Below, piece by piece: positions 7,088-57,289 of a stretch of 64,000 nucleotides of DNA. Source of the stretch: Acidiferrobacterales bacterium (GTDB lineage Bacteria > Pseudomonadota > Gammaproteobacteria > Acidiferrobacterales > SPGG2); assembly GCA_046760105.1 (NCBI GenBank), contig JBHIDJ010000006.1, positions 3,197 to 67,196 of the forward strand. The letters run 5' to 3'. The notes beneath the pieces were generated by a model. It was not told where the DNA came from. It saw nothing but the letters and a program-made list of their open reading frames with translations, and searched no databases. The position numbers and the translations under genes are program-made. The stretch's first letter is position 1. Each line of letters begins with the position of its first letter.

Positions 7088-8425
7088 TTACGTAGTCAAT
7101 ATCTTTATGAGGTTCTCATAGTCCTCTTTAGCACGGACATCGCTGGTAACCAGTGTGTTGATCTTACGGCATGCGTGCAGCACCGTTGTGTGGTCACGCC
7201 CACCGAACGCATCACCAATCTCTGGGAGGCTGTGATTCGTAAGCTCCTTGGCGAGCGCCATTGCCATTTGCCGTGGTCGTGCTACCTGTCGGGAGCGGCG
7301 CTTTGAGTGTAAGTCTGACACCCGTATCTTGTAGTATTCGGCGGCCGTCTTCTGAATGTTGTTGATCGTGACTAGCCGCTCCTGAAACGCGAGCAAGTCC
7401 TTCAGGCTTTCGCTGGCGAGCTCTACGTTAATCATGCGGCCAGTGAAATCTGCATTAGCCATAACACGACGGAGCGCGCCTTCAAGCTCACGTACATTTG
7501 AACGCACACGCTTGGCAATGAAGAAGGCAACCTCGCCTGGTAGCGTCGCACCGTCACTTGCCGCCTTCTTTATGAGGATAGCAACCCGCGTTTCCAGCTC
7601 CGGTGGCTCGATCGCAACCGTCAGCCCTGACCCGAAGCGCGATATTAATCGTTCGGCGACCCCGATGAGGTCTTTCGGGAAGCGGTCTGCGGTAATGATA
7701 ACCTGACGTTGACCTTCCAGTAAGGCATTGAAAGTATGGAAGAATTCCTCCTGAGAGCGCTCCTTGCGCACGAAGAATTGGATGTCGTCGATGAGCAGTG
7801 CATCGAGTGAGCGGTAGAATCTCTTGAACTCATTGATGGCATTGTGTTGTAACGCTCGGACCATGTCCGCCACGAAACGCTCCGCGTGCACGTAGGCAAC
7901 ATCCGCCCTAGGCTTACAGTGCAGCATCAGGTTTCCCGCTGCTTGCATAAGGTGGGTTTTACCCAACCCGACACCCCCGTAGATGAACAGCGGGTTGTAC
8001 GCTCCACCCGGGTTTTCGCCAACCTGGTTTGCAGCGGCGCGCGCAAGCTGATTGGACTTACCCTCGACGTGGCTCTGGAACGTGAACTCTGGGTTTAGCC
8101 GGCCGACTACAGGCACGGCCTTATTGCCCACGCTCGCCGTGCGTGTTGCAATCGGTGTTGCATTCGCCAGTGCCCGCTCTTGACCACCGACCTCCACATA
8201 CACGCTCACGCTGCCAGCGGCGTCGTACTGTGTCGCGAGCTCGGCGATACGTTCCATGAACCGCTCCCTTACCCAATCCATCACAAAGCGGTTGGGTGCT
8301 AGCAACCGCAACACACGCTCTTCTTTTATTGCTTGCAGTGGACGGATCCATGTGTTGAATTGTTGGGTAGGTAGCTCCTCCTCTAACCGCGCTAGGCAGT
8401 TTGTCCACAAGGCTGGATGTGTCAT
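7088..8425 (-). CDS. dnaA: chromosomal replication initiator DnaA
   Basis: [19 protein letters not shown] Walker A, LLIDDIQF, and C-terminal [27 protein letters not shown]. Start set to ATG 8425 ([19 protein letters not shown]); the track ORF extends 19 codons further. Confidence 0.96.
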
Positions 8426-8607
8426 GGGCGTTGTTCTGTTAGTTGTGGGGGGGCGAGAGTCTATCGCCAAACTCGTGTGCAATCTACATGTCGAAAGCTA
8501 CTCTAATGGATACAAGCATTTGCGTTTGTCAGTAGTTGACAAACCTGCGTTCAAGGCATTAACGTTGCGCCCCGCTTGCAGTAAGGAAGCGTTTAAGACC
8601 GGCACCG

Positions 8608-8742
8608 ATGAAAAGAACGTATCAACCAAGCGTTTTAAAACGCAAACGCAACCACGGGTTTCGGGCGCGCATGCGCACAGCGGGCGGTCGTGCAGTGCTT
8701 AATGCGCGTCGCGCGAAGCGCCGCTCACGCCTGAGCGCCTAA
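8608..8742 (+). CDS. rpmH: 50S ribosomal protein L34
   Basis: Absent from the ORF track because it is 44 aa. ATG 8608 gives [44 protein letters not shown], with stop TAA at 8740-8742. Canonical position upstream of rnpA. Confidence 0.95.
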
Positions 8743-8754
8743 CCTTTTTGGCAC

Positions 8755-9123
8755 GTGCCGGCGCGCGCCCGCGAAGGGCTACCCAAATCATATCGTCTGC
8801 TGCAGCCGTCGGCGTTCACATCCGTGCTGCGTCGTGGCTGTAAAAAGCGCGATGGTTATTTTACTGTGCTTGTGGTGCGGAACACGCTGGCACATCTACG
8901 CGTAGGCTTAGTGGTATCGCGTAAGGTGTCGTCGAGGGCGGTCGTGCGTAACAGGATCAAACGTCAAATACGCGAATCGGTTCGTCACCATCAGCCAGAG
9001 CTGAAAGGCCTTGATCTCGTCGTTATCGCCCAGCCGCAAGCGGCACGTGCGGAAGCTTCTGCGCTGCGGGCATCGCTTCGGCAGCACTGGATCAGTATCA
9101 TAGAAAAATGCGGCAAGCCCTAA
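8755..9123 (+). CDS. rnpA: ribonuclease P protein component
   Basis: [17 protein letters not shown]...[28 protein letters not shown] (RNase P protein RNR motif). GTG start, exact start uncertain. Confidence 0.9.
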
Positions 9124-9356
9124 TACGCATCGTGCGCGGCTATCGCTATTTTATCAGCCCACTACTGGGGCCACGCTGCCGCTTCTATCCGACATGTTCC
9201 GAGTATGCGCTGACCGCCATCGAGGCGCACGGGGTGTGCAAAGGTGTGCGGCTTGCGTGCTGGCGCCTGCTGCGTTGCCACCCCTGGCACTCGGGGGGCT
9301 ACGATCCTGTGCCTGCAGGCACGTCGTGCAACGAACACAAGGCAGGCCATGGATAA
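9108..9356 (+). CDS. yidD: membrane protein insertion efficiency factor YidD
   Basis: [58 protein letters not shown] is the full YidD signature. Overlaps the rnpA end and the yidC start. Confidence 0.92.
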
Positions 9357-11019
9357 CACGCGTTTCTTGCTGATTATCGCGCTCGCGATCATCATATTCT
9401 TGATTTTCCAGGCGTGGCAAGAGGAACAACGTCGGGCGGCTGAGCCGCCCGAGATCGCGACAGCGCCCGCCACCCCGGATGCGCCGGATGCGCCCAAGCC
9501 CCCGGCGGCTGAGACACCGGTACCAGCCCCACCTGCGGTGGAGGAGCGACCCACGAAGGCACCCGAGGCACCGCCCACCCGCATCGAGACGGGCGCGCAA
9601 ATTACGGTGGTGACGGATGTGGTCGAGGCGGTCATCGATACCGCCGGCGGCGATCTGCGCGAGCTCAAGTTGCGCAAGTACCCGGTGTCGGTCGATAAGC
9701 CGGATGAGCCCTTTGTGCTGTTGGAGAGTGCCGGCAAACATATCTATGTCGCGCAGTCGGGGCTCATCGGCCTCGATCGGGAGTATCCCACTCACAATAC
9801 GCGTTACCAGGCAGAAGCAAGCCGTTATGTACTGGCTAAGGATGCGGATCGGGTGCAAGTGCCGCTGCGCTGGCAGGCACCCGATGGCGTGCGCTACACG
9901 AAGCTCTATACCTTTCACCGCGACAGCTACGTCGTCGATGTGGAGTTCCTTGTCGAGAACACCGACGCCGGGCCCTGGGAGGGGCATCTCTACCGTCAGT
10001 TCCGCCGGCGATATATCGATCCCAAGCGCGGCTGGTTGGCACTGCCCACATACACCGGTGCCGCCATCTACACGCCCGAGGATAAGTACGACAAGATCTC
10101 TTTCGGCGACATTCGCGACGAGCCGCTGGAACGCGACGTGACCGGTGGTTGGGTCGCGATGTTACAGCACTATTTTGTGGGTTCGTGGATGCCGGCAGCC
10201 GACGAGCGCAACCGCTTTTACACGCTGGCGCTCGCGGACGACAACTACACCGTGGGCCTGAAGCAATTAACGCCAACCACCGTGGCGCCGGGCGCGAGCG
10301 GCCGGTTAAAGACAACGATCTACGCTGGCCCCAAAGAAACCCGTCGTCTGACGCGGCTGGTGGAAGGCATGGAGCTTACCGTCGACTACGGCTGGCTTAC
10401 CGTCATATCGGCGCCGCTGTTCTGGTTGCTCCAGTACATTCACGGCTGGGTTGGGAACTGGGGCTGGGCGATCGTCGTGCTCACTTTTATCATCAAGCTC
10501 GTGTTCTATCCCTTGTCAGCCGCGAGCTACAAGTCGATGGCGCACATGAAACGGGTGCAGCCAAAGCTGCAGAGCCTGCGGGAACGCTTCGGTCATGACA
10601 AGCAGCGCATGAACCAGGCGATGATGGAGCTTTACAAGAAAGAGAAGATCAACCCGCTAGGCGGCTGTCTGCCGATCGCGATCCAGATCCCGGTGTTTAT
10701 CGCGCTTTACTGGGTGTTGCTCGAGAGCGTCGAGCTGCGCCAGGCGCCCTTCATTCTCTGGATCACGGATCTAAGTGTTCGGGATCCCTTATTCGCCTTG
10801 CCCCTGATGATGGGCGCGACCATGTTTATTCAGCAGAAGCTGAATCCTCCTCCCCCGGATCCGATGCAGGCAAAGGTCATGATGGCCTTGCCGTTCGTGT
10901 TCACGGTGTTCTTCCTGTTCTTTCCCGCGGGACTGGTGCTTTACTGGCTGGTTAACAACATCCTCTCAGTCGCCCAACAGTGGCAGATCACACACATGAT
11001 CGCGGCCAAGGCAAAATAG
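9349..11019 (+). CDS. yidC: membrane protein insertase YidC
   Basis: [25 protein letters not shown]-terminal TM, a long periplasmic domain, and the C-terminal core [19 protein letters not shown]...[20 protein letters not shown]. Start set to ATG 9349; the track ORF carries 35 extra codons. Confidence 0.95.
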
Positions 11020-12383
11020 AATCCGCTTTGCCGATTCCCGCACGCGACACCATTGCTGCCGTCGCCACGCCGCCGGGGCGTGGCGGCATCGCGATCGTGC
11101 GCGTGTCCGGGCCCGCAGTGCGTGCCGTCGCCGAGGGGCTCGTCGGCCAGCTGCCGCGCCCGCGCTACGCGGTTTATGGTGCATTCGAGGATGCCTGCAA
11201 GCGCCCGATCGACAAGGGCATTGCATTGTTCTTTCCGGCGCCCGGTTCCTTCACCGGCGAGGACGTGCTGGAGCTCCACGGCCATGGTGGTCCGGTGGTC
11301 ATGGACATGCTGCTCAAACGCGTGCTGCAGCTCGGGGCCCGCATGGCACGTGCAGGCGAGTTTTCCGAACGCGCGTTTTTAAACGGCAAGCTCGACCTGA
11401 CGCAGGCTGAAGCCGTCGCCGATCTTATCGAAAGCAGCTCCGAAAGCGCGGCACGTTCCGCGTTGCGTTCGCTCGAAGGGCAATTCTCCAGGCGCGTGCA
11501 TGCGATCGTCGAGCAGCTTATCGAACTGCGCACCTATGTCGAGGCATCGATCGATTTTCCTGAAGAGGAGATCGACTTTTTGTCCGATCACAAGCTGTCG
11601 CGCGATCTCGTGGCAATACTGCAGGGGCTCGATGATCTACTTGAGTCGGCGCGCCAGGGCTGCTTGCTGCATGACGGTATGACGATCGTGTTGGCGGGCC
11701 CACCTAATGCCGGCAAGTCCAGCCTGCTGAATCGGCTCGCACAACACGATGCAGCGATTGTCAGCCGCACACCGGGCACGACCCGGGATGTCCTGCGCGA
11801 ACGCATCCAAATAGACGGCATGCCGGTACATGTATTGGACACCGCGGGTCTGCGCGATTCCACCGGTGAAATCGAAACCGAGGGCGTACGCCGCGCACGC
11901 GCCGCGATGGAACACGCCGACCGGGTGTTGCTCGTGATCGATGACGACATCGCGGATGAAAGCTCGGTGCAAACGCTCATACAGCAGCTTCCGCAGCCGG
12001 TGACCTATACATTGATCCGCAACAAGATCGACCTCAGTGGCCGCCCGCCGGGCGAGTGTGACAACACCGCTCAGACAGAGCTCGCACTGTCAGCCAAGAC
12101 CGGGGTTGGCCTCGACGACTTGCGCCAACATATGAAAAAGACGATGGGATTTCAGGACGCCGGCGAAGGGACGTTTATCGCCCGGCGCCGGCACCTGGAC
12201 GCACTTGCGCGTGCGCGCCGGCATGTACGGGCGGGGCAGGAGCAGCTAGAGCACGCACGCGCCGGCGAGTTGGCGGCCGAGGAGTTGCGCCTCGCCCAGC
12301 AAGCGCTTAACGAGATCACTGGTGAGTTCACCACCGAGGATCTGCTCGGCCGCATCTTCGCGAGTTTTTGTGTTGGCAAGTGA
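10980..12383 (+). CDS. mnmE: tRNA modification GTPase MnmE
   Basis: DTIAAVATPPGRGGIAIVRVSG, GPPNAGKSSLLN (G1), DTAGLR (G3), C-terminal FCVGK. GTG 10980 overlaps yidC by 40 nt; TTG 11028, just after the yidC stop, is an alternative start. Confidence 0.93.
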   Translation: MADHTHDRGQGKIESALPIPARDTIAAVATPPGRGGIAIVRVSGPAVRAVAEGLVGQLPRPRYAVYGAFEDACKRPIDKGIALFFPAPGSFTGEDVLELHGHGGPVVMDMLLKRVLQLGARMARAGEFSERAFLNGKLDLTQAEAVADLIESSSESAARSALRSLEGQFSRRVHAIVEQLIELRTYVEASIDFPEEEIDFLSDHKLSRDLVAILQGLDDLLESARQGCLLHDGMTIVLAGPPNAGKSSLLNRLAQHDAAIVSRTPGTTRDVLRERIQIDGMPVHVLDTAGLRDSTGEIETEGVRRARAAMEHADRVLLVIDDDIADESSVQTLIQQLPQPVTYTLIRNKIDLSGRPPGECDNTAQTELALSAKTGVGLDDLRQHMKKTMGFQDAGEGTFIARRRHLDALARARRHVRAGQEQLEHARAGELAAEELRLAQQALNEITGEFTTEDLLGRIFASFCVGK

Positions 12384-25448: not shown

Positions 25449-26993
25449 ATGCAACAACTACGTTCAACCGAGATCAGCGATCTCATCAAGCAAAAGATCG
25501 AACGCTTTGAGGCTAAGGCCGAAGCCCGCAATGAGGGTGTCATCGTCGGGCTGACGGACGGCATCGTCCGTATTCACGGCCTGTCCGACGTGATGCAGGG
25601 CGAGATGATTGAATTCCCGGGAAACACTTTTGGTTTGGCGCTGAACCTGGAGCGTGATTCGGTGGGCGCCGTGATCATTGGTGATTACCAACATATCTCC
25701 GAGGGCGACCGCGTGAGTTGTACCGGACGCATTATGGAGGTGCCCGTCGGTGAGGCACTCATCGGGCGTGTGGTGGATCCATTGGGGCGGCCGATCGATG
25801 GGCGTGGGGCACTCGAGACGGCGGAGACGTCGCCGCTGGAGAAGATCGCGCCGGGGGTTATCTCGCGCCAATCCGTATCGCAGCCGGTGCAGACGGGACT
25901 GAAGTCTATTGACTCCATGGTGCCCATCGGTCGGGGACAGCGTGAGCTCATCATTGGCGATCGCCAGACCGGCAAGACGGCATTGGCCGTTGACACCATC
26001 ATCAATCAGAAGGGACAGGATCTCGTTTGCATTTATGTCGCTATCGGGCAGAAGGCCTCGTCGGTGGCCAACGTGGTAAGAAAGCTCGAAGAGCACGATG
26101 CAATGAAGCATACGATCATTGTCGCTGCCACGGCGGCGGAGTCGGCCGCGCTGCAATATGTGGCGCCCTACAGCGGTTGCACCATGGGCGAGTACTTCCG
26201 CGACCGCGGCGAGGACGCGCTTATTATCTACGACGACCTGACCAAACAGGCGTGGGCGTACCGCCAAATGTCGCTACTGCTGCGCCGCCCGCCAGGGCGT
26301 GAGGCCTACCCGGGCGATATCTTTTATTTACATTCGCGTCTGTTGGAACGGGCCGCTCGCATTAATGCCGAGCACGTTGAGAGGATCACCAATGGCAAGG
26401 TGAAAGGCAAAACAGGCTCGTTGACGGCCCTGCCGATTATCGAAACCCAAGCGGGTGACGTATCGGCCTTTGTACCGACGAACGTGATCTCTATCACGGA
26501 CGGGCAGATTTACCTCGACACCGACCTGTTCAACGCCGGTAGCCGGCCTGCCATTAACGCCGGTTTGTCGGTGTCACGCGTCGGCGGTGCGGCGCAGACG
26601 AAGATCATCAAGAAACTGGGCGGTGGCGTGCGCTTAGCGTTGGCACAGTTTCGCGAGTTGGCTGCATTCGCGCAGTTCGCGTCCGAGCTCGACCCTGCTA
26701 CCCGCAAGCAAATTGAGCGCGGGCAGCGCATCACCGAGGTCATGAAGCAGCCGCAATACTCGCCGATGACAGTGGCCGAAATGGCGGTGTCTCTCTATGT
26801 TGCCAACGAAGGATATCTTGACGATATAGAAGTTCTCAAGGTGTGTGCGTTCGAGGATGCATTGCAGCCATACATGAGATCCAAGCGGGCCGATCTCATG
26901 GACAAGATCAACCGCGAAGCCGACTACACAGATGAGATTGCCGCTGAGCTGAAGGTGGCTGTGGAAGACTTCAAGGCCAATCATACTTGGTAA
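25449..26993 (+). CDS. atpA: F0F1 ATP synthase subunit alpha
   Basis: 514 aa. [16 protein letters not shown]-loop, [11 protein letters not shown]. Confidence 0.98.
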
Positions 26994-27008
26994 CATTGGA
27001 TTGTTGTA

Positions 27009-27869
27009 ATGGCGGTCGGTAGAGAGATACGAAAAAAGATCAAGAGCATCCAGAACACGCAAAAGATTACGCGTGCGATGGAGATGGTAGCGGCAAGCAA
27101 AATGCGCCGGGCGCAAGAGCGTATGAGTGCCGCCCGACCGTATGCCGACAAGATGCGCAATGTCATCGGCCATCTGCACCATGCGCATCCTGAATACCGA
27201 CACCCATTTTTCACGGAGCGCGAGGCCAAGAACGCAGGTCTCATCGTTGTGACCACGGATCGTGGTTTGTGCGGTGGACTCAATACTAATGCGTTGCGTA
27301 CGGCGCTCGAAACGATGAGAGAGTGGGACAAAAGGAACGTCAGCACTCAGCTGTGCTGCATCGGCACCAAGGGTTTAACGTTTTTCCGGCGCATCGGCGC
27401 AAACATCCGTTCGGAAGTTACCCACCTCGGCGATACGCCGCGGGTGGAAGACCTTATCGGTACCGTCAAGGTGATGTTGGATGCGTACGTCGACTCAGCC
27501 ATTGATCGCCTACACATCGTTTACAGTCATTTCATAAATACTATGAGCCAGCGGCCAGTGATCGAACAGCTATTGCCGCTTCCAGGAACGGAGGAAGAAG
27601 AGCTGACACATTACTGGGATTATATCTATGAGCCGGACGCGCAAGAGGTTGTCGATGATCTGTTGCGGCGTTACATTGAAGCGCTGATCTATCATGCTGT
27701 AGTCGAGAATCTGGGGTGCGAGCAGTCGGCGCGCATGGTCGCGATGAAGTCGGCCTCGGACAATGCGGGCAAACTTATCGACGAGTTTACGTTGAAATAT
27801 AACAAGGCGAGGCAGGCGGCGATTACACAAGAGATTTCCGAGATCGTCGCTGGCGCAGCAGCCGTCTAA
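27009..27869 (+). CDS. atpG: F0F1 ATP synthase subunit gamma
   Basis: [32 protein letters not shown] and C-terminal [20 protein letters not shown]. Confidence 0.97.
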
Positions 27870-27870
27870 A

Positions 27871-27967
27871 AGTCTAGTTGCAAGTAGCAAGTGGCAAGCG
27901 ACAAGGAGCAGGCCAGGAACAGGGACCATGTCCGGTTTTTCTTGCTACTTGAAACTTGCTACTCGCT
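27871..27967. repeat. heptamer-array inverted-repeat element, GCAAGTA/CTTGCTA family, copy 1 (atpG-atpD spacer)
   Basis: Left units are ttgcaag tagcaag tggcaag cgacaag gagcagg. Right units are tcttgct acttgaa acttgct actcgct. A perfect 11-bp inverted repeat pairs caagtagcaag (27881-27891) with cttgctacttg (27941-27951). Starts 2 nt after the atpG stop and ends 3 nt before the atpD SD AAGGAGG. Confidence 0.85.
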
Positions 27968-27971
27968 GTAA

Positions 27972-29356
<1,385 letters not shown>

Positions 29357-29357
<1 letters not shown>

Positions 29358-29449
29358 AAAGCAGTAGCAAGCGCCAAGTAGCAAGTGACAAGTGAAACAC
29401 CCAAATTTGGTTTTCTTGCTACTTCACAGTTGAAACTTGAGACTTAGTT
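29357..29449. repeat. heptamer-array inverted-repeat element, GCAAGTA/CTTGCTA family, copy 2 (atpD-atpC spacer)
   Basis: Left units are gtagcaa gcgccaa gtagcaa gtgacaa gtgaaac. The centre holds the 10-bp palindrome ccaaatttgg. Right units are ttcttgc tacttca cagttga aacttga gacttag. Inverted repeat aagtagcaag (29376-29385) with cttgctactt (29415-29424). Fills the spacer from the atpD stop to the atpC ATG. Confidence 0.85.
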
Positions 29450-29872
29450 ATGGCGATGACCATGCATGTGGATATCGTGAGCGCCGAAGAGGAAATCTAC
29501 TCGGGCACGGCAGAAATGGTGTTCGCGCCTTTGGCGACAGGCGAGGTGGGGATACTGCCGCGCCACGCGCCGCTGATCGCGCGTATGAGGCCGGGCGAAG
29601 TGCGCGTGCGCAAGGGTGGTGAGGACCAGTTTTTCTATGTCTCGGGTGGGCTGCTAGAGGTACAGCCGCATGTTGTGACGGTGCTTTCGGATACGGCGGT
29701 ACGCGCCAAAGATCTCGATGAGGCGGCTGCGGTAGAAGCCCAGCGCCGAGCGGAGGAGGCGCTCAAAGACAGAAAAGCGGACATCGATTATGCCAGGGCG
29801 CAGGCAGAGTTAATCGAGGCCACCGCCCAACTACGCATGATTCGTCGCCTGCGCGAGAAGCTCAAGAAATAG
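29450..29872 (+). CDS. atpC: F0F1 ATP synthase subunit epsilon
   Basis: [43 protein letters not shown], the typical epsilon N-terminus. Confidence 0.95.
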
Positions 29873-30199
29873 CCCTGGCCATCTTCTCCCCGATCATCGC
29901 GGCCCGAATGCGTGGCAGCCTGCGTCTAGCCGCCAAGCGCTTGTAGTACGCAACAATTGAAATGATTGCTCACCAGCAGTCACATAACCAATTGAAAAAT
30001 ATAGGATTATCTGAGTGGGGGAGGTCTGCCAGGGCAAGCGCTGCGAGGTGTCACGGTGCCCTACAGTGCAATCGTCTTGCCCCCACACGGCAATGCGCGA
30101 GAAACTATTCAAGCATACCGTACGGCTGCTATTTTTTGATTAAGGGCTTAGCTTGAACGCGCTGTAATAGACAGTACACCACGTCACCCCGACAACGTC

Positions 30200-31570
30200 A
30201 TGACGCTAGAGGCTATTATTCTCGCCGCGGGCCAGGGCACACGCATGTATTCGGATACCCCCAAGGTATTGCATGATCTGGGCGGCAAACCGTTGCTTGT
30301 TCACGTGCTCAATACCGCCGCGAGCCTCGAAGCGCAAACCATTCATGTCGTGTATGGTCATGGGGGCGAACGTGTACGCGACTGTGTAGAGGGCAACGAC
30401 TTAAACTGGGTATTGCAGGCCGAACAGAAGGGCACAGGCCATGCGCTGATACAGGCATTACGTGACGTCGCAGACGACGCCTTGGTGCTAGTGTTATACG
30501 GCGATGTGCCATTGATACAGCGCGAGACGTTGACGGCTCTCGTGAAGGCAGCCAGTGACGACAGGTTGGCACTTGTTACTGTCGAACTCGACGATCCTAC
30601 CAGTTACGGGCGAATCATCCGTGACGCTGAAGGCAGGGTAGTGAAAATCGTGGAGGAAAAGGATGCAAGCACCGATGAGCGCGCGGTACAAGAAGTCAAT
30701 GCGGGGTTCCTCGCGGCGCCGGCGGGCAGGCTCAAGTCTTGGTTAGCAAACGTGGATAACCAAAACGCGAAGGGCGAGTATTATCTAACAGACGTTATCG
30801 CAATAGCTGCCGCCAGTGGCTTCAGCATTGCTACCTGCAAACCGCGCTCGACTTGGGAAATAAGGGGTGTAAATAATAAATTGGAACTGGCACAGCTTGA
30901 GCGCGTATACCAGCAGCAACAGGCACAGGTACTGATGAAGCAAGGTGTTACACTGCGAGACCCGACGCGATTCGATCTACGTGGTCAGCTTAAAGCAGGT
31001 CGTGACGTCGTGATTGATGTCAATGTAGTGCTGGAGGGAGAAGTCGTTTTAGGCGATAGTGTGCAAATCGGACCCAATAATTTTCTACGGAGCTCATCCA
31101 TCGGCGCCGCCACCGTAATTCTCGCCAATTGCGTCATTGAGGAATCAGTTGTGGGACGCAACTGTCAGATTGGGCCGTTTGCGCGGTTACGTCCCGGACC
31201 ACAGATCGCCGATCAAGCACGCATCGGGAATTTCGTCGAGATAAAGAAATCCGAGATCGGCGAAGGCAGCAAGATCAATCACCTGAGTTACGTCGGTGAT
31301 ACGGTAGTGGGCAAGAATGTCAACATTGGTGCGGGTACCATCACCTGCAACTACGACGGCGCCAACAAGAACCAGACAATCATTGGTGACAATGTTTTTA
31401 TCGGTTCCGACGTGCAGCTGGTGGCGCCGGTAACCGTCGGTGAAGGCGCCACCATCGGCGCGGGCTCGACGATAACCAAGGACGCACCAGCGGGGCAGCT
31501 GACCCTGAGTCGTGCCGAGCAACGGACGCGAAAGGGGTGGAAAAGGCCGGTTAAGAAAAGTAAATCGTGA
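30200..31570 (+). CDS. glmU: bifunctional UDP-N-acetylglucosamine pyrophosphorylase / GlcN-1-P acetyltransferase
   Basis: ILAAGQGTRMYSDTPKVLH N-terminal NTP-transferase motif and C-terminal left-handed beta-helix hexapeptide repeats (NVNIGAGTITCNYDGANK). Confidence 0.97.
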   Translation: MTLEAIILAAGQGTRMYSDTPKVLHDLGGKPLLVHVLNTAASLEAQTIHVVYGHGGERVRDCVEGNDLNWVLQAEQKGTGHALIQALRDVADDALVLVLYGDVPLIQRETLTALVKAASDDRLALVTVELDDPTSYGRIIRDAEGRVVKIVEEKDASTDERAVQEVNAGFLAAPAGRLKSWLANVDNQNAKGEYYLTDVIAIAAASGFSIATCKPRSTWEIRGVNNKLELAQLERVYQQQQAQVLMKQGVTLRDPTRFDLRGQLKAGRDVVIDVNVVLEGEVVLGDSVQIGPNNFLRSSSIGAATVILANCVIEESVVGRNCQIGPFARLRPGPQIADQARIGNFVEIKKSEIGEGSKINHLSYVGDTVVGKNVNIGAGTITCNYDGANKNQTIIGDNVFIGSDVQLVAPVTVGEGATIGAGSTITKDAPAGQLTLSRAEQRTRKGWKRPVKKSKS

Positions 31571-49360: not shown

Positions 49361-49967
49361 AATCGCAGTCAGCCAGTTCCAGCCAACACCCCAGCACCTG
49401 CCGAGCGGTGTCGACACCTTGGCGCTTGAGCGAGGAGAAGCTCTGCACCGAAACGCCTACACCGAATACCTCCAGCGCGTGCTCCACCTCACGTAAGGCC
49501 GCGGCACGCCGCGCGCGCCTGAATTTGTCACTTTTGCAAAGCAGCACGTGCACTGGCATCGTGTTTGCCGTACACCACTGCAGCAGCGTCAGATCGTAGT
49601 CGGTAAGTGGGTGACGGATATCCATGACCAGCATAAGTCCGCGAAGCGAAGCGCGAGTCTGTAAGTACCGCGGAAGCGCGTGGTCCCAGCGACGCCTCAC
49701 GGTCGCCGGAGCACGTGCATAGCCAAAGCCAGGCAGATCCACCAGGCGGTGTGCGGCGTCCAGCGAGAACACATTGATCTCTCGCGTCCGACCAGGCGTT
49801 TTGCTCGTACGTGCGAGCGCTTTCTGCGCCGTGATCGTGTTAATGGCGCTCGATTTGCCGGCGTTGGAGCGGCCCGCGAAGGCTACCTCGGCACCGCAGT
49901 CAGGTGGCAACTGGGCGAGCGAGGCCACACCCAGGGTAAAGCGTGCGCGCGCAAAAGGATTCTTCAT
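49359..49967 (-). CDS. engB: ribosome biogenesis GTP-binding protein EngB/YihA
   Basis: EVAFAGRSNAGKSSAINTI (G1), DLPGFGYA (G3), LLCKSDK (G4). Start set to ATG 49967. Confidence 0.92.
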   Translation of the reverse strand: MKNPFARARFTLGVASLAQLPPDCGAEVAFAGRSNAGKSSAINTITAQKALARTSKTPGRTREINVFSLDAAHRLVDLPGFGYARAPATVRRRWDHALPRYLQTRASLRGLMLVMDIRHPLTDYDLTLLQWCTANTMPVHVLLCKSDKFRRARRAAALREVEHALEVFGVGVSVQSFSSLKRQGVDTARQVLGCWLELADCD

Positions 49968-50135
49968 GGACTCGCAAACCAAATTGACCACTAACCAAGC
50001 TGTTGGTATATAGGGCATCCATCCAACGCGGACATTGCTAACAGATTATACGGGTTACGTCGCTCGCCGCGTTTAGCGAACGCCATGTCGACGCAGGGGG
50101 TCTGGCTGGTTCACGTAACCTCGGGAGGAGCAAAG

Positions 50136-50741
50136 ATGAAAAACTGTGTCACCTTGGCGCTGGTATTTTGGCTGTCTGTCTCGCTCGGCATCGCCCAGGC
50201 GGCCGGAGATGCGGCCGCTGGCAAGGCCAAAGCTGCCCTGTGTGTGGCTTGCCACGGTCCCGACGGCAACAGCACGAATCCGGAGTGGCCCAACCTGGCG
50301 GGACAACATCCCGAATATACCGTTAAGCAACTGAAGGACTTCAAAGACGGCAGACGTGAGAACGAACTCATGTCGGGCATAGCGAAGGGACTGTCGGAAC
50401 AAGACATGGAAAATCTCGCCGCCTATTTCAGCGCACAACAACCAAAGGTTCTGGCTGTCGCGGACCTAGAGCGAACGAAGCGTGGCGAGCGGCTTTATCG
50501 CGGGGGCAACTCCGAGAGGGAGGTGTCGGCCTGCATGAGCTGCCATGGTCCGTCAGGACGAGGCATCCCACCACGGTTTCCACAGATCTCTGGCCAACAT
50601 GCGGCTTACACGGAGAAACAGCTACTCGCGTTTAAAGGCGGCAAGCGCACCAACGACTTCGAGATCATGAGACGGATTGCCTTTCGCATGTCCGAAGACG
50701 AAATCAAGGCAGTCGCGCAATACATGGCCGCTTTGTACTGA
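50136..50741 (+). CDS. dihaem cytochrome c4
   Basis: Signal peptide MKNCVTLALVFWLSVSLGIAQA. Two haem sites, CVACHGPDG and CMSCHGPSG. SD GGAGG upstream of ATG 50136. Confidence 0.9.
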   Translation: MKNCVTLALVFWLSVSLGIAQAAGDAAAGKAKAALCVACHGPDGNSTNPEWPNLAGQHPEYTVKQLKDFKDGRRENELMSGIAKGLSEQDMENLAAYFSAQQPKVLAVADLERTKRGERLYRGGNSEREVSACMSCHGPSGRGIPPRFPQISGQHAAYTEKQLLAFKGGKRTNDFEIMRRIAFRMSEDEIKAVAQYMAALY

Positions 50742-50875
50742 CAAACGCCGCTCGTCCGTCACCTGCCCCTTCTCGTCGCTTGCTACCGTCGACGGCCACC
50801 TATTGACCGGTGGCATCTCCCGGGGCGTCCATTTTTTCCTATTTAGACCAATAGCTTATAGCCAGGTTAAAGGGT

Positions 50876-50891
50876 TGGCACGAGAATTGCC
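50876..50891 (+). promoter_or_regulatory. sigma-54 (-24/-12) promoter
   Basis: tTGGCACGagaaTTGCc matches the consensus YTGGCACG-N4-TTGCW at every fixed position except the final W. Located about 100 nt upstream of the 78-aa ORF. Confidence 0.6.
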
Positions 50892-50991
50892 TGTCCTCAG
50901 ATAAGCAATACGGGATGGGCTGCCCCGCGATGTGTCGGCGGCTCCATCCACCAGCAAGCGATGTTTCAGTCGCGTTGGGGAGAGGCAAAAG

Positions 50992-51228
50992 ATGCTGAGT
51001 CACATTGTCAATTTGGTGAGCGATTACGAACAGGACTACGGTTCGCGACCGAACCTGGTCTATATGAACGAGACCCACTACACCTACCTGCGCCAAGAGA
51101 TGCCGGGGGTAAGAGATCATAACGACGTAGTGGCGATCCTAGGTATTGATATTGCATTAAGCGATATCGCTGTTCGCCCGCACGTTGCGACGGTGCGGTA
51201 TACGGACGAGAACATTCTTGTGAGCTGA
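50992..51228 (+). CDS. hypothetical 78-aa protein (no family recognised)
   Basis: SD GGGGAGAGG at 50977-50985, then ATG 50992. Sequence MLSHIVNLVSDYEQDYGSRPNLVYMNETHYTYLRQEMPGVRDHNDVVAILGIDIALSDIAVRPHVATVRYTDENILVS. Flanked by a sigma-54 promoter and a rho-independent terminator. Confidence 0.6.
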   Translation: MLSHIVNLVSDYEQDYGSRPNLVYMNETHYTYLRQEMPGVRDHNDVVAILGIDIALSDIAVRPHVATVRYTDENILVS

Positions 51229-51267
51229 CAGGTTTTTTGGTTGAACAGCGTGTGGGGCGCACGCACG

Positions 51268-51298
51268 GGCCGGGTATCAGTCCCGGCCTGTTTTTTTT
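51268..51298 (+). terminator. rho-independent terminator
   Basis: Stem ggccggg (51268-51274) with cccggcc (51282-51288), 7-nt loop, then tgTTTTTTTT. The hairpin contains the stop codon of convergent hemL (51277-51279). Confidence 0.8.
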
Positions 51299-52590
51299 GT
51301 GAGCTCGGTAAGTACTTCTGCCGCCGCCGCGACCGTTTTGGCAATGTCATCAACGCTATGAGCGGCGGACACAAAACCAGCCTCGAACGCCGAGGGAGCG
51401 AGATAAACACCCGCCGCCAACATTCCGTGAAAGAATTGCTTGAAGTGCTCGAGGTCGCAAGCCATGACCTGGGCAAACCGCGTCACCGCGAGCTCTGCGG
51501 TGAAGAACATACCGAACATACCGCCGACTGATTGGACCATGAGCGGCACCCTTGCCTCGTGCGCGGCCGCGCGCAACCCATCAGCCAGTGCCTCGGTCTT
51601 GGCGGTGAGTTCTTGGTGGAAGCCATCGCGCGTGATTTCCTTTAACGTCGCCAGGCCAGCCGCCATCGCGACGGGGTTGCCCGACAATGTGCCGGCCTGA
51701 TAGACAGGCCCATCCGGGGCGATGTAATCCATGATGTCGGCGCGTCCGCCGAATGCGCCGACCGGCAACCCGCCCCCAATGATCTTACCGAGCGTGGTGA
51801 GGTCAGGATTAACCCCGTACAGACCCTGGGCGCCGTTCAGGGCCACGCGAAAGCCGGTCATGACCTCGTCGAAGATAAGCAGCGCCCGGTGGTTGCTACA
51901 CAACTCGCGCAACGTCGACAGAAAGCCGTCGACCGGTGGTATGCAGTTCATATTCCCGACCACCGGTTCAACGATGATACAGGCGATTCGCTCCCCGATT
52001 TCCGCAAAAACTTGCCGTACCTGACCGACATTGTTGTATTCGAGTGTGACGGTGTGCGCCGCCAGGTCCGCCGGCACGCCTGCTGACGTCGGCACCCCCA
52101 GTGTTAATGCCCCGGAGCCCGCTTTGACCAGGAGCGCATCCGAATGGCCGTGGTAACAACCCTCGAATTTGATGATGGTGTCGCGTCCGGTAAAACCGCG
52201 CGCCAGCCGAATCGCGCTCATGGTGGCTTCGGTGCCGGAATTCACCATGCGCACCTTTTCGATCGACGGCATCAGGGAGCAGATCATATCCGCCATTTCC
52301 ACTTCGATGCGGGTCGGTGCGCCAAATCCGAGCCCGTGTTCCGCGTACTGTCTTACCGCCGCGATCACGGCCGGGTGTGCGTGGCCAAGGATCAAGGGGC
52401 CCCAGGAGCCAACATAGTCGATATATTGTTTGCCGTCTTCATCCCACACGTGCGCCCCGCGTCCGCGCGCGAAGAACACGGGCTCACCGCCGACGCCTTT
52501 GAAAGCGCGCACTGGCGAGTTCACGCCTCCCGGGATGTGTCTGCACGCCTGCTTGAATAATGAGCTCGAGCTACGGGTCATCACTTTCAC
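51277..52590 (-). CDS. hemL: glutamate-1-semialdehyde 2,1-aminomutase
   Basis: [27 protein letters not shown], class-III aminotransferase body. The start may be the internal ATG 9 nt downstream. Confidence 0.96.
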
Positions 52591-54698: not shown

Positions 54699-54725
54699 GC
54701 TGACGCGACGAGTCAGCGTCTTTTT
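54699..54725 (+). terminator. rho-independent terminator
   Basis: Stem GCTGAC (54699-54704) with GTCAGC (54712-54717), loop gcgacga, then gtcTTTTT. It lies 200 nt after the rubredoxin stop, and the stem contains the stop codon of the convergent regulator gene (54713-54715). Confidence 0.6.
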
Positions 54726-57289
54726 GCGCGCCGAGAGCCCAAGCGCTCGATCTTGTAATGCAGCGTATTGGGACGTAGACCTAGCAAGCGCGCCGCCTTC
54801 GATTTATTGCCGTCACAGCGCTCAAGCGTCTGCGCGATGAGGCGTGCCTCGAACTCAGATACGTGCTGACCGAGGGACTTCTCCGTCACGGCGTAGTCGA
54901 GCTCTGGGAGCTTTTGTGGTTGCGGCTGTTTGGATTGCAGCCTGGAGAACACAGACGACTTTAGCACGGCCATATCGGCAGGGAAGTCCTCCGCCAGCAA
55001 ATCGTCGGCCTCGCTTTGACTGAGGTAGTGATAGGTACCGGCCTGCAGGTTGAACTGCAGCGTGTAATAGTGCACGAGAAGCGGGATATCGAGTTTTCTT
55101 TCGCGCATAGTTGGTATAACCAGTACAAAGGGCTTAGAGGACGCAGCCAGTTGCTGCAGTCTGACTGAAACCTCGTCCGCGTTGTTGTCGCACCCGGCGA
55201 TCACGCGTACACGGCCAGCGTGTGGAATCGCGATGCGGAGCTCGTCTTGCTGCAGTGCAGGTAAGCGACGGAGATTATCGATCATCAACGTCCCGTCACG
55301 CGCATCAGCGAGCAACTCAGTGAAACCAACCTGCCTTGCGAGCACCGTTTTGTTCTCAAGCTCCGCGGTCGTAAGTACACTGAACTTTCCGTCGTTACCG
55401 CTGCAACCATACATATAGCGCGCCAGCTCGATGGCCTCATGGACATCTTTCGATTCGATCAGCACAGGCTCCTTGAATCCCGCGATCCGTTCTGCGCAGT
55501 CAAGCAGTTCAGTAAAGACTTGACTGTGAGCGATGAGAGGATAATCCGGGTTATGAATAGCGCGTACCGACTTTTGCAGCTCTACCATTGCGCGGATTTT
55601 GCGTGTGAGCACCGCTTCCGTGAGTTCACCCGGTAGCACCTCGATCAGTGATCCCAGCAAGTTTCGTTTATGCTTTGAAACAAACTCGCTTGCGCCTGGC
55701 CCGTAAACCAGAACCGCTATCGCCACATGATTTTCGTGGATCATCTTTAAGAGCTTACTGCGATGTACCGCAGGGGTGCCGGCCTCGATGAGGCATACCA
55801 GCACGTCAGGCGCGCTGTGGCGCTTAAAACCGGCGGAACCTGGCCCGACAAAGTGAGCCACCTGTGGGAAATGTTTGCGAAGGTGTTTGAGCATTGTTTT
55901 GTCACGGCCCAACAGCGTAACCGTCGGGCCGAACGTTTCCCCCGCAATCGCGCTCGCACCGGTCGTTAGGCCATCTGTCGGCTGTTCGCTGGCTAGGCGC
56001 ATATTTTCATTGCGGAGCACATCGACTTCGCGCCACAAGCATGTCAATGCATGCTCTGTTTTTTGCAATTGCCGTTCGAGGGCATGTATTTGGTCATGAG
56101 CATGCGCACGCATTGTCAGGAGCTTGTCGAGGAACAGGTCCGCCATTTTGTCGAACAGCTGTTCGACCACTCGAAAATCAAATGGCGTGTAGACCTGCTC
56201 ACTGAAAGAGTCGCCCAGTAACAGCCAACCCGATGCATTGCGACTGTGTGGATAGAAGGGGACTATCGCCGCGACACCATGGTGGTTCATCAGAGCGTGA
56301 GTCTTTGGACTGGTATCCACGATTTCGTTGGCCACGATGATATGCGCAAAACTTTGCAGCGCCTCGTCAGGAATTTGTACCATACGCTTTGATGCCCCGG
56401 CTGTAGCCAACACCGCTCCTTGGTTACCCAACAGGGCCACCGGACATCTCAGGGTTTCCGCCAGGCGAGTAACAGCTTCATTGACGGAATCGAGGTCAGC
56501 GATCTCGGTGATCATAGCGCGGATCCTGTGATAAAACGCCGTCTTGCGCTTTCTGACCTTCGACCACGGTATATAAAACTGGATATCGAATAACCTATGT
56601 TGATGAATGGCATAGGCGGTAACCACAAGAAAGTAAGTGATGGCAATCGGGAATGTTACGGCAGCGTTGAACCAACCAATACCAAGGCGTAACAAGATAA
56701 GTACGGTTAGCATCACAAGCGCCATCGGGATGATGGCGACCAGCAGGACCGAGTTCTTCGCCCTTTTTTGCGAAGTATACTGGTAGATTGATCCGTAGAC
56801 TAAAATTCCGATGACGCTCAAGAAAATACCGATCGCGTAGAACTCAAACACAAAGTATAAGGGACCAGATGCACGTGTTACGCTGTATTCAAAACGTACG
56901 AAGTCATTGACTAACCATGGTGTAAAAAGTAGCAAAATTTCGAGGACGATAGCGTATGAGTAAACAGCTGTTAGCGTGAGCCTCATTCTCCACATGTTGT
57001 GTTGGTCGAATGCTAAGGAAACCACCAGGTGAAACAAAAGCGCGAAGCCAACAATCCCAGCAGCGTAGTAGATGGTGGCTTCGATGTATGGAAGCGTGTT
57101 GTTGTCAATGAGATTGTGGACGTGCCAAATCTCGGCAACGTTTTGAATCGAAAGCGCGAATAGAAAATAGAGGTAAATGCGGGTCTGCGCATTATGCGTT
57201 CTAGAGAAATGGGCGTAGGCAAAAATGCCACCTTTGAATGCCAACGCGATGATGGCGGGGAGGCTAATTAAGAACGCGTTTAAACCCAT
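54713..57289 (-). CDS. membrane-tethered NtrC-like regulator: 7TM + GAF-like + degenerate receiver-like + degenerate sigma-54 AAA+ + Fis-type HTH
   Basis: 858 aa. About 7 TM helices in the first 250 aa. A GAF-like segment (ITEIADLDSVNEAV...WLLLGDSF), then a coiled coil. An AAA+-like region has the Walker A position reading VLIESKDVHEAIELAR (no GxxGxGK), Walker B reading GTLMIDNL (DN, not DE), and no GAFTGA. C-terminal HTH_8 is LERCDGNKSKAARLLGLRPNTLHYKIERLG. Confidence 0.8.
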   Translation of the reverse strand: MGLNAFLISLPAIIALAFKGGIFAYAHFSRTHNAQTRIYLYFLFALSIQNVAEIWHVHNLIDNNTLPYIEATIYYAAGIVGFALLFHLVVSLAFDQHNMWRMRLTLTAVYSYAIVLEILLLFTPWLVNDFVRFEYSVTRASGPLYFVFEFYAIGIFLSVIGILVYGSIYQYTSQKRAKNSVLLVAIIPMALVMLTVLILLRLGIGWFNAAVTFPIAITYFLVVTAYAIHQHRLFDIQFYIPWSKVRKRKTAFYHRIRAMITEIADLDSVNEAVTRLAETLRCPVALLGNQGAVLATAGASKRMVQIPDEALQSFAHIIVANEIVDTSPKTHALMNHHGVAAIVPFYPHSRNASGWLLLGDSFSEQVYTPFDFRVVEQLFDKMADLFLDKLLTMRAHAHDQIHALERQLQKTEHALTCLWREVDVLRNENMRLASEQPTDGLTTGASAIAGETFGPTVTLLGRDKTMLKHLRKHFPQVAHFVGPGSAGFKRHSAPDVLVCLIEAGTPAVHRSKLLKMIHENHVAIAVLVYGPGASEFVSKHKRNLLGSLIEVLPGELTEAVLTRKIRAMVELQKSVRAIHNPDYPLIAHSQVFTELLDCAERIAGFKEPVLIESKDVHEAIELARYMYGCSGNDGKFSVLTTAELENKTVLARQVGFTELLADARDGTLMIDNLRRLPALQQDELRIAIPHAGRVRVIAGCDNNADEVSVRLQQLAASSKPFVLVIPTMRERKLDIPLLVHYYTLQFNLQAGTYHYLSQSEADDLLAEDFPADMAVLKSSVFSRLQSKQPQPQKLPELDYAVTEKSLGQHVSEFEARLIAQTLERCDGNKSKAARLLGLRPNTLHYKIERLGSRRAKRR

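Follow-up and report, generated by a model that had tools for sequence, protein, structure and literature searches.

A small-protein gene conserved across Acidiferrobacterales with a predicted enhancer-dependent sigma-54 promoter and a sequence-conserved 3'UTR hairpin

The DNA around positions 50763–51298 of the window, by which we mean the whole stretch of 64,000 nucleotides that was analysed, very probably constitutes a monocistronic, enhancer-dependent sigma-54 transcription unit for a 78-aa protein (ORF78). A first-pass annotation of this DNA had proposed a self-contained sigma-54 unit, and the proposal is upheld by the relatives, in which the promoter, the ORF, the terminator and the synteny are all conserved. 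The unit is ordinary in mechanism and follows a textbook control logic; it is new in content, because its protein family is uncatalogued and its 3'UTR element is unexplained. The features of the unit, together with the convergent neighbouring gene, are as follows.

50763–50779, no strand assigned: candidate activator site CTGCCCCTTCTCGTCGC, a weak copy of the family dyad, with its centre 105 bp upstream of the T of TGGCAC
50846–50858, forward strand: IHF-like site gaCCAATAGCTTA, agreeing with 7 of the 9 specified positions of WATCAANNNNTTR, between the candidate enhancer and the promoter
50876–50890, forward strand: predicted sigma-54 −24/−12 promoter TGGCACGAGAATTGC, with the core TGGCAC-N5-TTGC, found at 80 of 80 orthologous loci
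50902–50991, forward strand: predicted 5' leader of about 90 nt including the Shine–Dalgarno sequence GGGGAGAGG, variable in relatives
50992–51228, forward strand: CDS of the 78-aa acidic alpha/beta protein ORF78, with 98 homologs, constant length and purifying selection
51248–51264, forward strand: 3'UTR hairpin GCGTGTG-GGG-CGCACGC, with the core GTGTGGGGCGCAC at 51250–51262, directly 5' of the terminator
51265–51298, forward strand: intrinsic terminator, a stem-loop at 51265–51291 with 10 pairs (8 G-C) and a 7-nt loop, followed by T8
51277–52590, reverse strand: convergent hemL, with its stop codon (51277–51279) in the loop of the ORF78 terminator

The promoter core at 50876–50890, which extends to tTGGCACGagaaTTGCc at 50875–50891, is the sole exact match to TGGCAC-N5-TTGC on both strands of the 64 kb window, and it carries the GG at −24 and the GC at −12 at exact spacing. 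This agrees with the first-pass description of a near-perfect −24/−12 promoter that has no second match on either strand. In the species-level relatives (Acidiferrobacterales MAGs), TGGCA[CT]-N5-TTGC lies 57–117 nt 5' of the orthologous ATG in 80 of 80 loci, as searched within 260 nt upstream of the ATG, and the best match to TGGCAC-N5-TTGC per locus scores 9 or 10 of 10. By comparison, the flanks of the orthologous loci contain only 2 other matches in 890 kb, both strands included, so that recurrence of the match at the same place in every locus is far beyond chance. In a stack of 79 non-redundant upstream regions aligned at the −24 element, near-invariance from −60 to +40 is confined to the columns of TGGCA and TTGC. 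The element is likewise kept in distant paralog clades, which answers the first-pass suggestion to look for its conservation in relatives. Taken together, promoter conservation strongly supports the sigma-54 reading, in which transcription would depend on rpoN; the transcription start is predicted at about 50901–50903. No sigma-70-like promoter was found in 50000–52000.

Permitting one mismatch, the window contains 16 matches to TGGCAC-N5-TTGC as compared with 6.5 expected from shuffles, and none of 100 shuffles reached 16. Fifteen of these matches carry a mismatch, the exception being the one at 50876–50890. Examples of one-mismatch matches lie at 1697, 47629, 48654, 49554 and 49844, and at least four fall inside annotated genes, those at 47629 and 48654 in polA and those at 49554 and 49844 opposite engB.

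Comparative data indicate that ORF78 is a real gene under strong purifying selection. The reading frame ends with TGA at 51226–51228, and in 81 of 81 loci (80 species-representative genomes among them) it has 78 codons and a conserved start. Between the window and its closest relative, L001, pN is 0.017 and pS is 0.71 by the Nei–Gojobori method, and the median dN/dS over 941 pairs with unsaturated dS is 0.145 (dN/dS 0.01–0.15). Consistent with these values, the column entropy is 0.57, 0.37 and 1.28 at codon positions 1, 2 and 3, respectively, the third position dominating the variation. Thus the length and start are retained and dN/dS is far below 1, as the first-pass annotation had proposed to check.

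A search through 5.8 billion proteins yielded 98 homologs (64–100% identity), nearly all of 78 aa and all named 'hypothetical', from Acidiferrobacterales, Candidatus Muproteobacteria and unclassified Gammaproteobacteria MAGs. Their alignment is almost gapless, with M1 and S3 invariant, L2 and H4 nearly so, and a conserved C-terminus. The family to which ORF78 belongs has the pattern MLSxI..L...(F/Y)E..(H/Y)G.(R/K)PN..Y.N..H...L. The wider family numbers 122 proteins at E ≤ 1e-3 in a profile search of 1.8 billion cluster representatives and 354 proteins in a second profile search; its members are 76–84 aa long, share the pattern MLS(F/Y)(I/L)YRL..(F/Y)...HG..PN..Y...H...L......HP.V. and bear the source name 'hypothetical protein' throughout. 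The ORF had been called an orphan, which does not hold given 98 close and more than 350 distant homologs. The same annotation recognised no family for the protein, and in this it was right: the window protein has no match in Pfam, NCBIfam or PHROGs, 26 diverse family members have no consistent match in Pfam or NCBIfam, and the best match in a PDB sequence profile search has E = 0.12. On the basis of these searches, the family of more than 350 proteins is uncatalogued, that is, new relative to Pfam, NCBIfam and PHROGs.

The AlphaFold2 model of ORF78, built from the alignment, has a pLDDT of 85.7 and the order helix-strand-helix-helix-strand-strand, with the last six residues disordered. By manual count the protein contains 11 Asp/Glu, 5 Arg and no Lys, giving a net charge of about −6, and the product has no signal peptide, transmembrane segment or catalytic signature. 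ORF78 is predicted to be a soluble, cytoplasmic, acidic alpha/beta protein. A Foldseek search of the model against the PDB gave nothing significant (E ≥ 0.1), and the search against BFVD gave small uncharacterised phage proteins (TM 0.66–0.69, E 2e-3 to 7e-2), namely A0A2I7RNW6, A0A8S5PKI1, U5Q0F1 from Bacillus phage Slash and A0A7T3TKV9 from a Serratia phage. With 73–86 aa these proteins resemble ORF78 in size and in predicted alpha/beta topology, whereas the matches are not significant at E ≤ 0.001, the identity is 15–24% and none has a known function. Furthermore, unlike the phage proteins, ORF78 is encoded by a chromosomal gene that is syntenic across an order. The sequence and structure checks proposed for the 78 aa thus yield homologs and a confident fold, but no function by either homology or fold.

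The Shine–Dalgarno sequence GGGGAGAGG occupies 50977–50985 and is followed by the ATG at 50992 and the 78 codons, just as the first reading had it. Among relatives the leader diverges in sequence and varies in length, and in the window its folding is unremarkable (z = −1.75). Because the leader varies in this manner and the MLSH start is kept, translation is assigned to the ATG at 50992 rather than to an upstream GTG, and a 98-aa ORF from the GTG at 50932 was rejected on the same grounds. An Rfam search over 50000–52000 at E ≤ 10 gave sub-threshold, terminator-like matches only (SorX, 18 bits versus a gathering score of 46.6), indicating no riboswitch or known sRNA in this interval.

Upstream of the promoter, two elements suggest an enhancer architecture. 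Of 115 non-redundant loci, 56 contain the IHF-like core CAA-N4-TTR, as compared with 5.1 in shuffles. Its forward-strand copies are phase-locked, with 49 sites at −25 to −28 relative to the T of TGGCA, and the full WATCAANNNNTTR is present in 14 loci versus 0.2 expected. Farther upstream, a dyad search with matrix refinement on 78 non-redundant orthologous upstream regions recovered the family dyad cTGCCG-N5-CGGCAg, whose relative entropy is 13.3 bits, as compared with 6.0 ± 0.25 when shuffled sequences are treated likewise. Of the 78 loci, 48 have the dyad centre between −100 and −120, about 105–120 bp upstream of the −24 element. The copies in the window are weak; that of the dyad has 9.5 bits (rank 16 among window positions) and owes its credibility solely to its position, which is shared by close as well as distant relatives, the dyad lying at −104 to −106 in L001, L006, L036 and L060.

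Two dyad sites of at least 8 bits occur in 23 of the 78 loci. In the Sulfuricaulis group (L010 at about 2860–2900 and similar loci) the half-sites run both ways, CGGCA-N8-TGCCG-N5-CGGCA-N1-TGCCG, and so many half-sites in one enhancer region suggest more than one activator dimer site. The palindromes ccgtcgacgg (50786–50795) and gccacc-N8-ggtggc (50795–50814), which the first-pass annotation had put forward as activator sites, are indeed present and sit between the dyad and the IHF-like site; their role as activator sites was rejected, as L001 and L002, the closest relatives (96% protein identity), lack them. No other pair of promoter and dyad in the window is convincing. Known activator sites include TGCACC-N5-GGTGCA for NtrC, TGT-N10-ACA for NifA, TGTC-N10-GACA for GlrR and TGTCCC-N4-GGGACA for TspR, and to our knowledge TGCCG-N5-CGGCA matches none of these. 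Flagellar activators are unlikely, since Acidiferrobacterales are without flagellar genes (PMC13063649).

At the 3' end, a hairpin (dG ≤ −8) with a T-run lies within 200 nt after the ORF78 stop in 80 of 81 loci, and the outer stem pairs of the terminator show changes on both sides among relatives. The clean terminator that the first-pass annotation ascribed to the unit is thus confirmed as hairpin plus T8 in the window and as a feature kept by the relatives. Immediately upstream, the core of the 3'UTR motif keeps its sequence throughout the order, reading GTGTGGGGCGCAC in the window and TGTGCGGGGTGCAC, CGTGTGGGGG or GGGGTGTGGGC in others. Folding of the window copy gives a stem of 7 bp closed by a GGG loop, abutting the terminator. 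The strict pattern GTG[CT]GGGG[CT]GC[AG] is found 39 times in ORF78 3'UTRs and 0 times elsewhere in 970 kb, and the G-rich motif is unique in the window; a generic repeat was therefore rejected. In L009, motif, hairpin and T-run occur twice in tandem, and in L027 and L033 the motif is degenerate. In nine loci hemL is 0.5–1.5 kb off, and in 7 of these 9 the motif and terminator still directly follow ORF78, indicating that the element belongs to the ORF78 transcript and not to hemL, so that its interpretation as the 3' end of hemL was rejected as well. Sequence comparison thus leads to the conclusion that the 3'UTR hairpin motif is new, is specific to the ORF78 3'UTR and travels with the gene. 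The small hairpin shows no covariation, a test that is uninformative as the sequence is too conserved, and a flank-swap null gives nearly the same stem length. The motif folds better on the forward strand in 52 of 69 loci, as expected for any G/U-rich sequence. No site complementary to it was found within ±3 kb.

The gene order polA > (engB <) cyt c4 > ORF78 > < hemL < thiE < thiD is kept in L001–L069, and the most divergent orthologs (L070–L080) retain ORF78 > < hemL < thiE < thiD behind a different upstream gene. This conserved order is what the first-pass annotation had proposed to look for between cytochrome c4 and hemL. The hemL gene is convergent and at most 350 nt from ORF78 in 64 of 73 loci. 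In the window its last 7 codons (KKTGRD) are encoded by the 3' arm of the terminator and the T-run, and as its stop codon lies in the terminator loop, the convergent transcripts would overlap by about 22 nt. On the hemL strand, no U-run follows the hairpin. The upstream genes in L070–L080 were considered as adjoining activator genes and rejected, being apaH, apaG and a gene for a PAS-GGDEF protein.

Neither a GAFTGA-type enhancer-binding protein nor an RpoN box is encoded in the 64 kb window. The one NtrC-like gene of the window is the following.

54713–57289, reverse strand: 858-aa NtrC-like gene, with an N-terminal 7TM region, a degenerate sigma-54-interaction domain and a C-terminal Fis-type HTH_8

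Its 7TM region is a weak HisKA_7TM match, and its match to Sigma54_activ_2 (E = 9e-5) is below the family cutoff. The Walker A motif GxxGxGK is replaced by PVLIESKDVHEA and GAFTGA is missing, in accordance with the first-pass remark that the window encodes no intact enhancer-binding protein and that its one NtrC-like gene is degenerate. From these features the protein looks like a membrane-anchored relic of an enhancer-binding protein. At the corresponding position relatives (L145 and L146) have hemH-rubredoxin-fadE, so the gene is not linked to the ORF78 unit, and with its AAA+ domain degenerate and its position not syntenic it was rejected as the ORF78 activator.

A second branch of the family, at 35–50% identity to ORF78, is located between ate (bpt) and infA, beside clpA-clpS.

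L081–L144 and L157–L159: ate-infA paralogs of 76–84 aa, for example L100:3001–3252 and L083:4001–4240

In most ate-infA clades, with members at 40–50% identity among them, TGGCAC-N5-TTGC or CGGCAT-N5-TTGC precedes the ATG by 55–95 nt. The −24 element there is no more than about 50 nt away from the ate stop codon or overlaps with it. By comparison, an AT-rich Woeseiaceae-like clade has no −24/−12 motif, indicating that sigma-54 control is not universal in the family. The best dyad matches in the ate-infA clades fall inside the ate coding sequence, where they cannot be told from coding conservation and the test is uninformative; L085 and L087 are the exception, with a perfect palindrome at −82. 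The 3'UTR motif is absent from these paralogs, whose downstream DNA is the infA promoter. The 84-aa ate-infA proteins were deposited from Sulfuricaulis sp. and Candidatus Muproteobacteria, and the 78-aa hemL-linked gene comes from these very lineages and from one and the same Rifle sample series. From this overlap, the two paralogs, both with predicted sigma-54 promoters, most likely reside in the same organisms; the window itself has one copy of the family. Since the promoter is found at both paralogous loci, sigma-54 control looks like an old property of the family that was kept after duplication and relocation.

The features of the unit suggest the following mode of action, in which sigma-54 dependence, the binding of IHF and the activator, the transcription start and the action of the protein are what we infer from sequence. 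Sigma-54 RNA polymerase would rest in a closed complex on TGGCAC-N5-TTGC (50876–50890). An AAA+ enhancer-binding protein encoded elsewhere in the genome would bind the TGCCG-N5-CGGCA-type dyad, represented in the window by the copy at 50763–50779, and an IHF-induced bend at 50846–50858 would bring it to the polymerase, whereupon ATP hydrolysis would open the promoter. Transcription from about 50902 would produce an mRNA of about 400 nt with a 90-nt leader, a strong Shine–Dalgarno sequence, 78 codons and a 70-nt 3'UTR, ending at the intrinsic terminator at 51265–51298. Once the activator has sensed its signal, the ORF78 product would most likely act by binding to another macromolecule.

Two readings would remove either the sigma-54 control or the gene itself. 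The −24/−12-like sequence might be kept for another reason, for example as the operator of another DNA-binding protein, with a sigma-70-family polymerase, or else read-through from cyt c4, providing the transcript. Some read-through may occur in the window, in which no terminator was detected between cyt c4 (ending at 50741) and the promoter and ORF78, but L027, L051 and L059 have a clear terminator after the upstream gene, and the lack of a sigma-70-like promoter in 50000–52000 argues against the other polymerase. The conserved positions are precisely the GG- and GC-bearing blocks of the sigma-54 consensus at exact spacing, with the IHF-like site and the upstream dyad at canonical distances, and the motif is still with the gene at its other locus, where ate lies upstream. 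This reading is therefore very improbable. That ORF78 is a chance or degenerating frame, and the unit non-coding or a relic, could be argued from the small size of the protein, the lack of a family annotation and a fold resemblance limited to small uncharacterised phage proteins. It is, however, effectively refuted by the selection data, namely pN and pS in the closest relative and variation concentrated at third positions, and it is equally at odds with 78 codons and a conserved start in 81 of 81 loci, more than 350 homologs, synteny with housekeeping genes across an order and a confident predicted fold.

A further reading would add to the sigma-54 unit rather than replace it. Bacterial 3'UTR-derived sRNAs include GlnZ, CpxQ and SdhX. 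GlnZ is processed from the 3'UTR of the NtrC/sigma-54-dependent glnA mRNA (PMC9731577; bioRxiv 10.1101/2022.04.01.486790) and offers a precedent for a dual-function transcript, in which the 3' end of the ORF78 mRNA (51248–51298, about 50 nt), released or acting in place, would be a sigma-54-controlled regulatory RNA, or a protein-binding or stability element. The ORF78 mRNA resembles the source of GlnZ, as far as can be told from sequence alone, in its predicted sigma-54 control and in having a conserved 3'UTR block immediately upstream of the terminator, and the succession of an A/U-rich stretch after the stop, motif and terminator is the layout of processed 3'UTR sRNAs. The motif is conserved across the order where the leader and other intergenic DNA are not, it is confined to these 3'UTRs and unique in the window, it remains with the ORF where hemL is distant, and it is duplicated in tandem with hairpin and T-run in L009; the better folding of the forward strand points the same way, but is the asymmetry that any G/U-rich sequence would give. 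Against this reading, the small hairpin is without covariation support and differs little from the flank-swap null in stem length, no complementary site lies within ±3 kb, the ate-infA paralogs do not have the motif, and L027 and L033 have a degenerate form of it. Unlike GlnZ, it is G-rich and self-complementary, with no sequence similarity to GlnZ and no Rfam match. By analogy, a GlnZ-like sRNA derived from the ORF78 mRNA is an attractive reading, and yet a dual function is on balance rather unlikely. The bolder proposal, that the unit is the first representative of an ancient sigma-54 regulon output that has gone unrecognised in basal Gammaproteobacteria, with a small acidic regulator family in two paralogous loci and a hemL-linked mRNA that delivers a regulatory RNA from its G-rich 3' hairpin and terminator, we regard as speculative and unlikely.

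Comparison of the sigma-54 unit with known systems reveals both likenesses and differences. Classical enhancer-dependent sigma-54 promoters with IHF-assisted looping are exemplified by nifH and glnHp2. The ORF78 unit is like them in its GG/GC −24/−12 elements at exact spacing, in an IHF-like site between promoter and candidate enhancer and in a dyad-symmetric candidate site upstream, about 100–150 bp from the start, whereas its target is one small gene and not a metabolic operon. Small stand-alone sigma-54-dependent genes are represented in E. coli by pspG and zraP, which encode an integral membrane protein and a periplasmic protein, respectively. ORF78 is likewise short and monocistronic, has its own predicted sigma-54 promoter and terminator and presumably encodes a stress or nutrient effector; by comparison with PspG and ZraP, it has no sequence or fold relationship to either and is predicted to be soluble, acidic and cytoplasmic.

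Knowledge of sigma-54 regulons, whose definition rests on their activators, comes mostly from model bacteria. The ORF78 family keeps its predicted sigma-54 promoter across a whole order of sulfur- and iron-oxidising chemolithoautotrophs and in a paralog elsewhere, which suggests that some conserved signalling pathway in these organisms has the family among its core outputs. With promoter, dyad and IHF-like site there is a concrete handle for defining the co-regulated set and for matching activators, and the direct effector candidates are the ORF78 protein and the 3'UTR element. In addition, a small-protein family with more than 350 members and a confident fold joins catalogues in which it has been listed only as 'hypothetical'. 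Elsewhere in the window, 7088–12383 and 25449–31570 hold dnaA, yidC, mnmE, the alpha and beta subunits of ATP synthase and a GlmU-like bifunctional transferase, a gene set typical of a chromosomal origin region.
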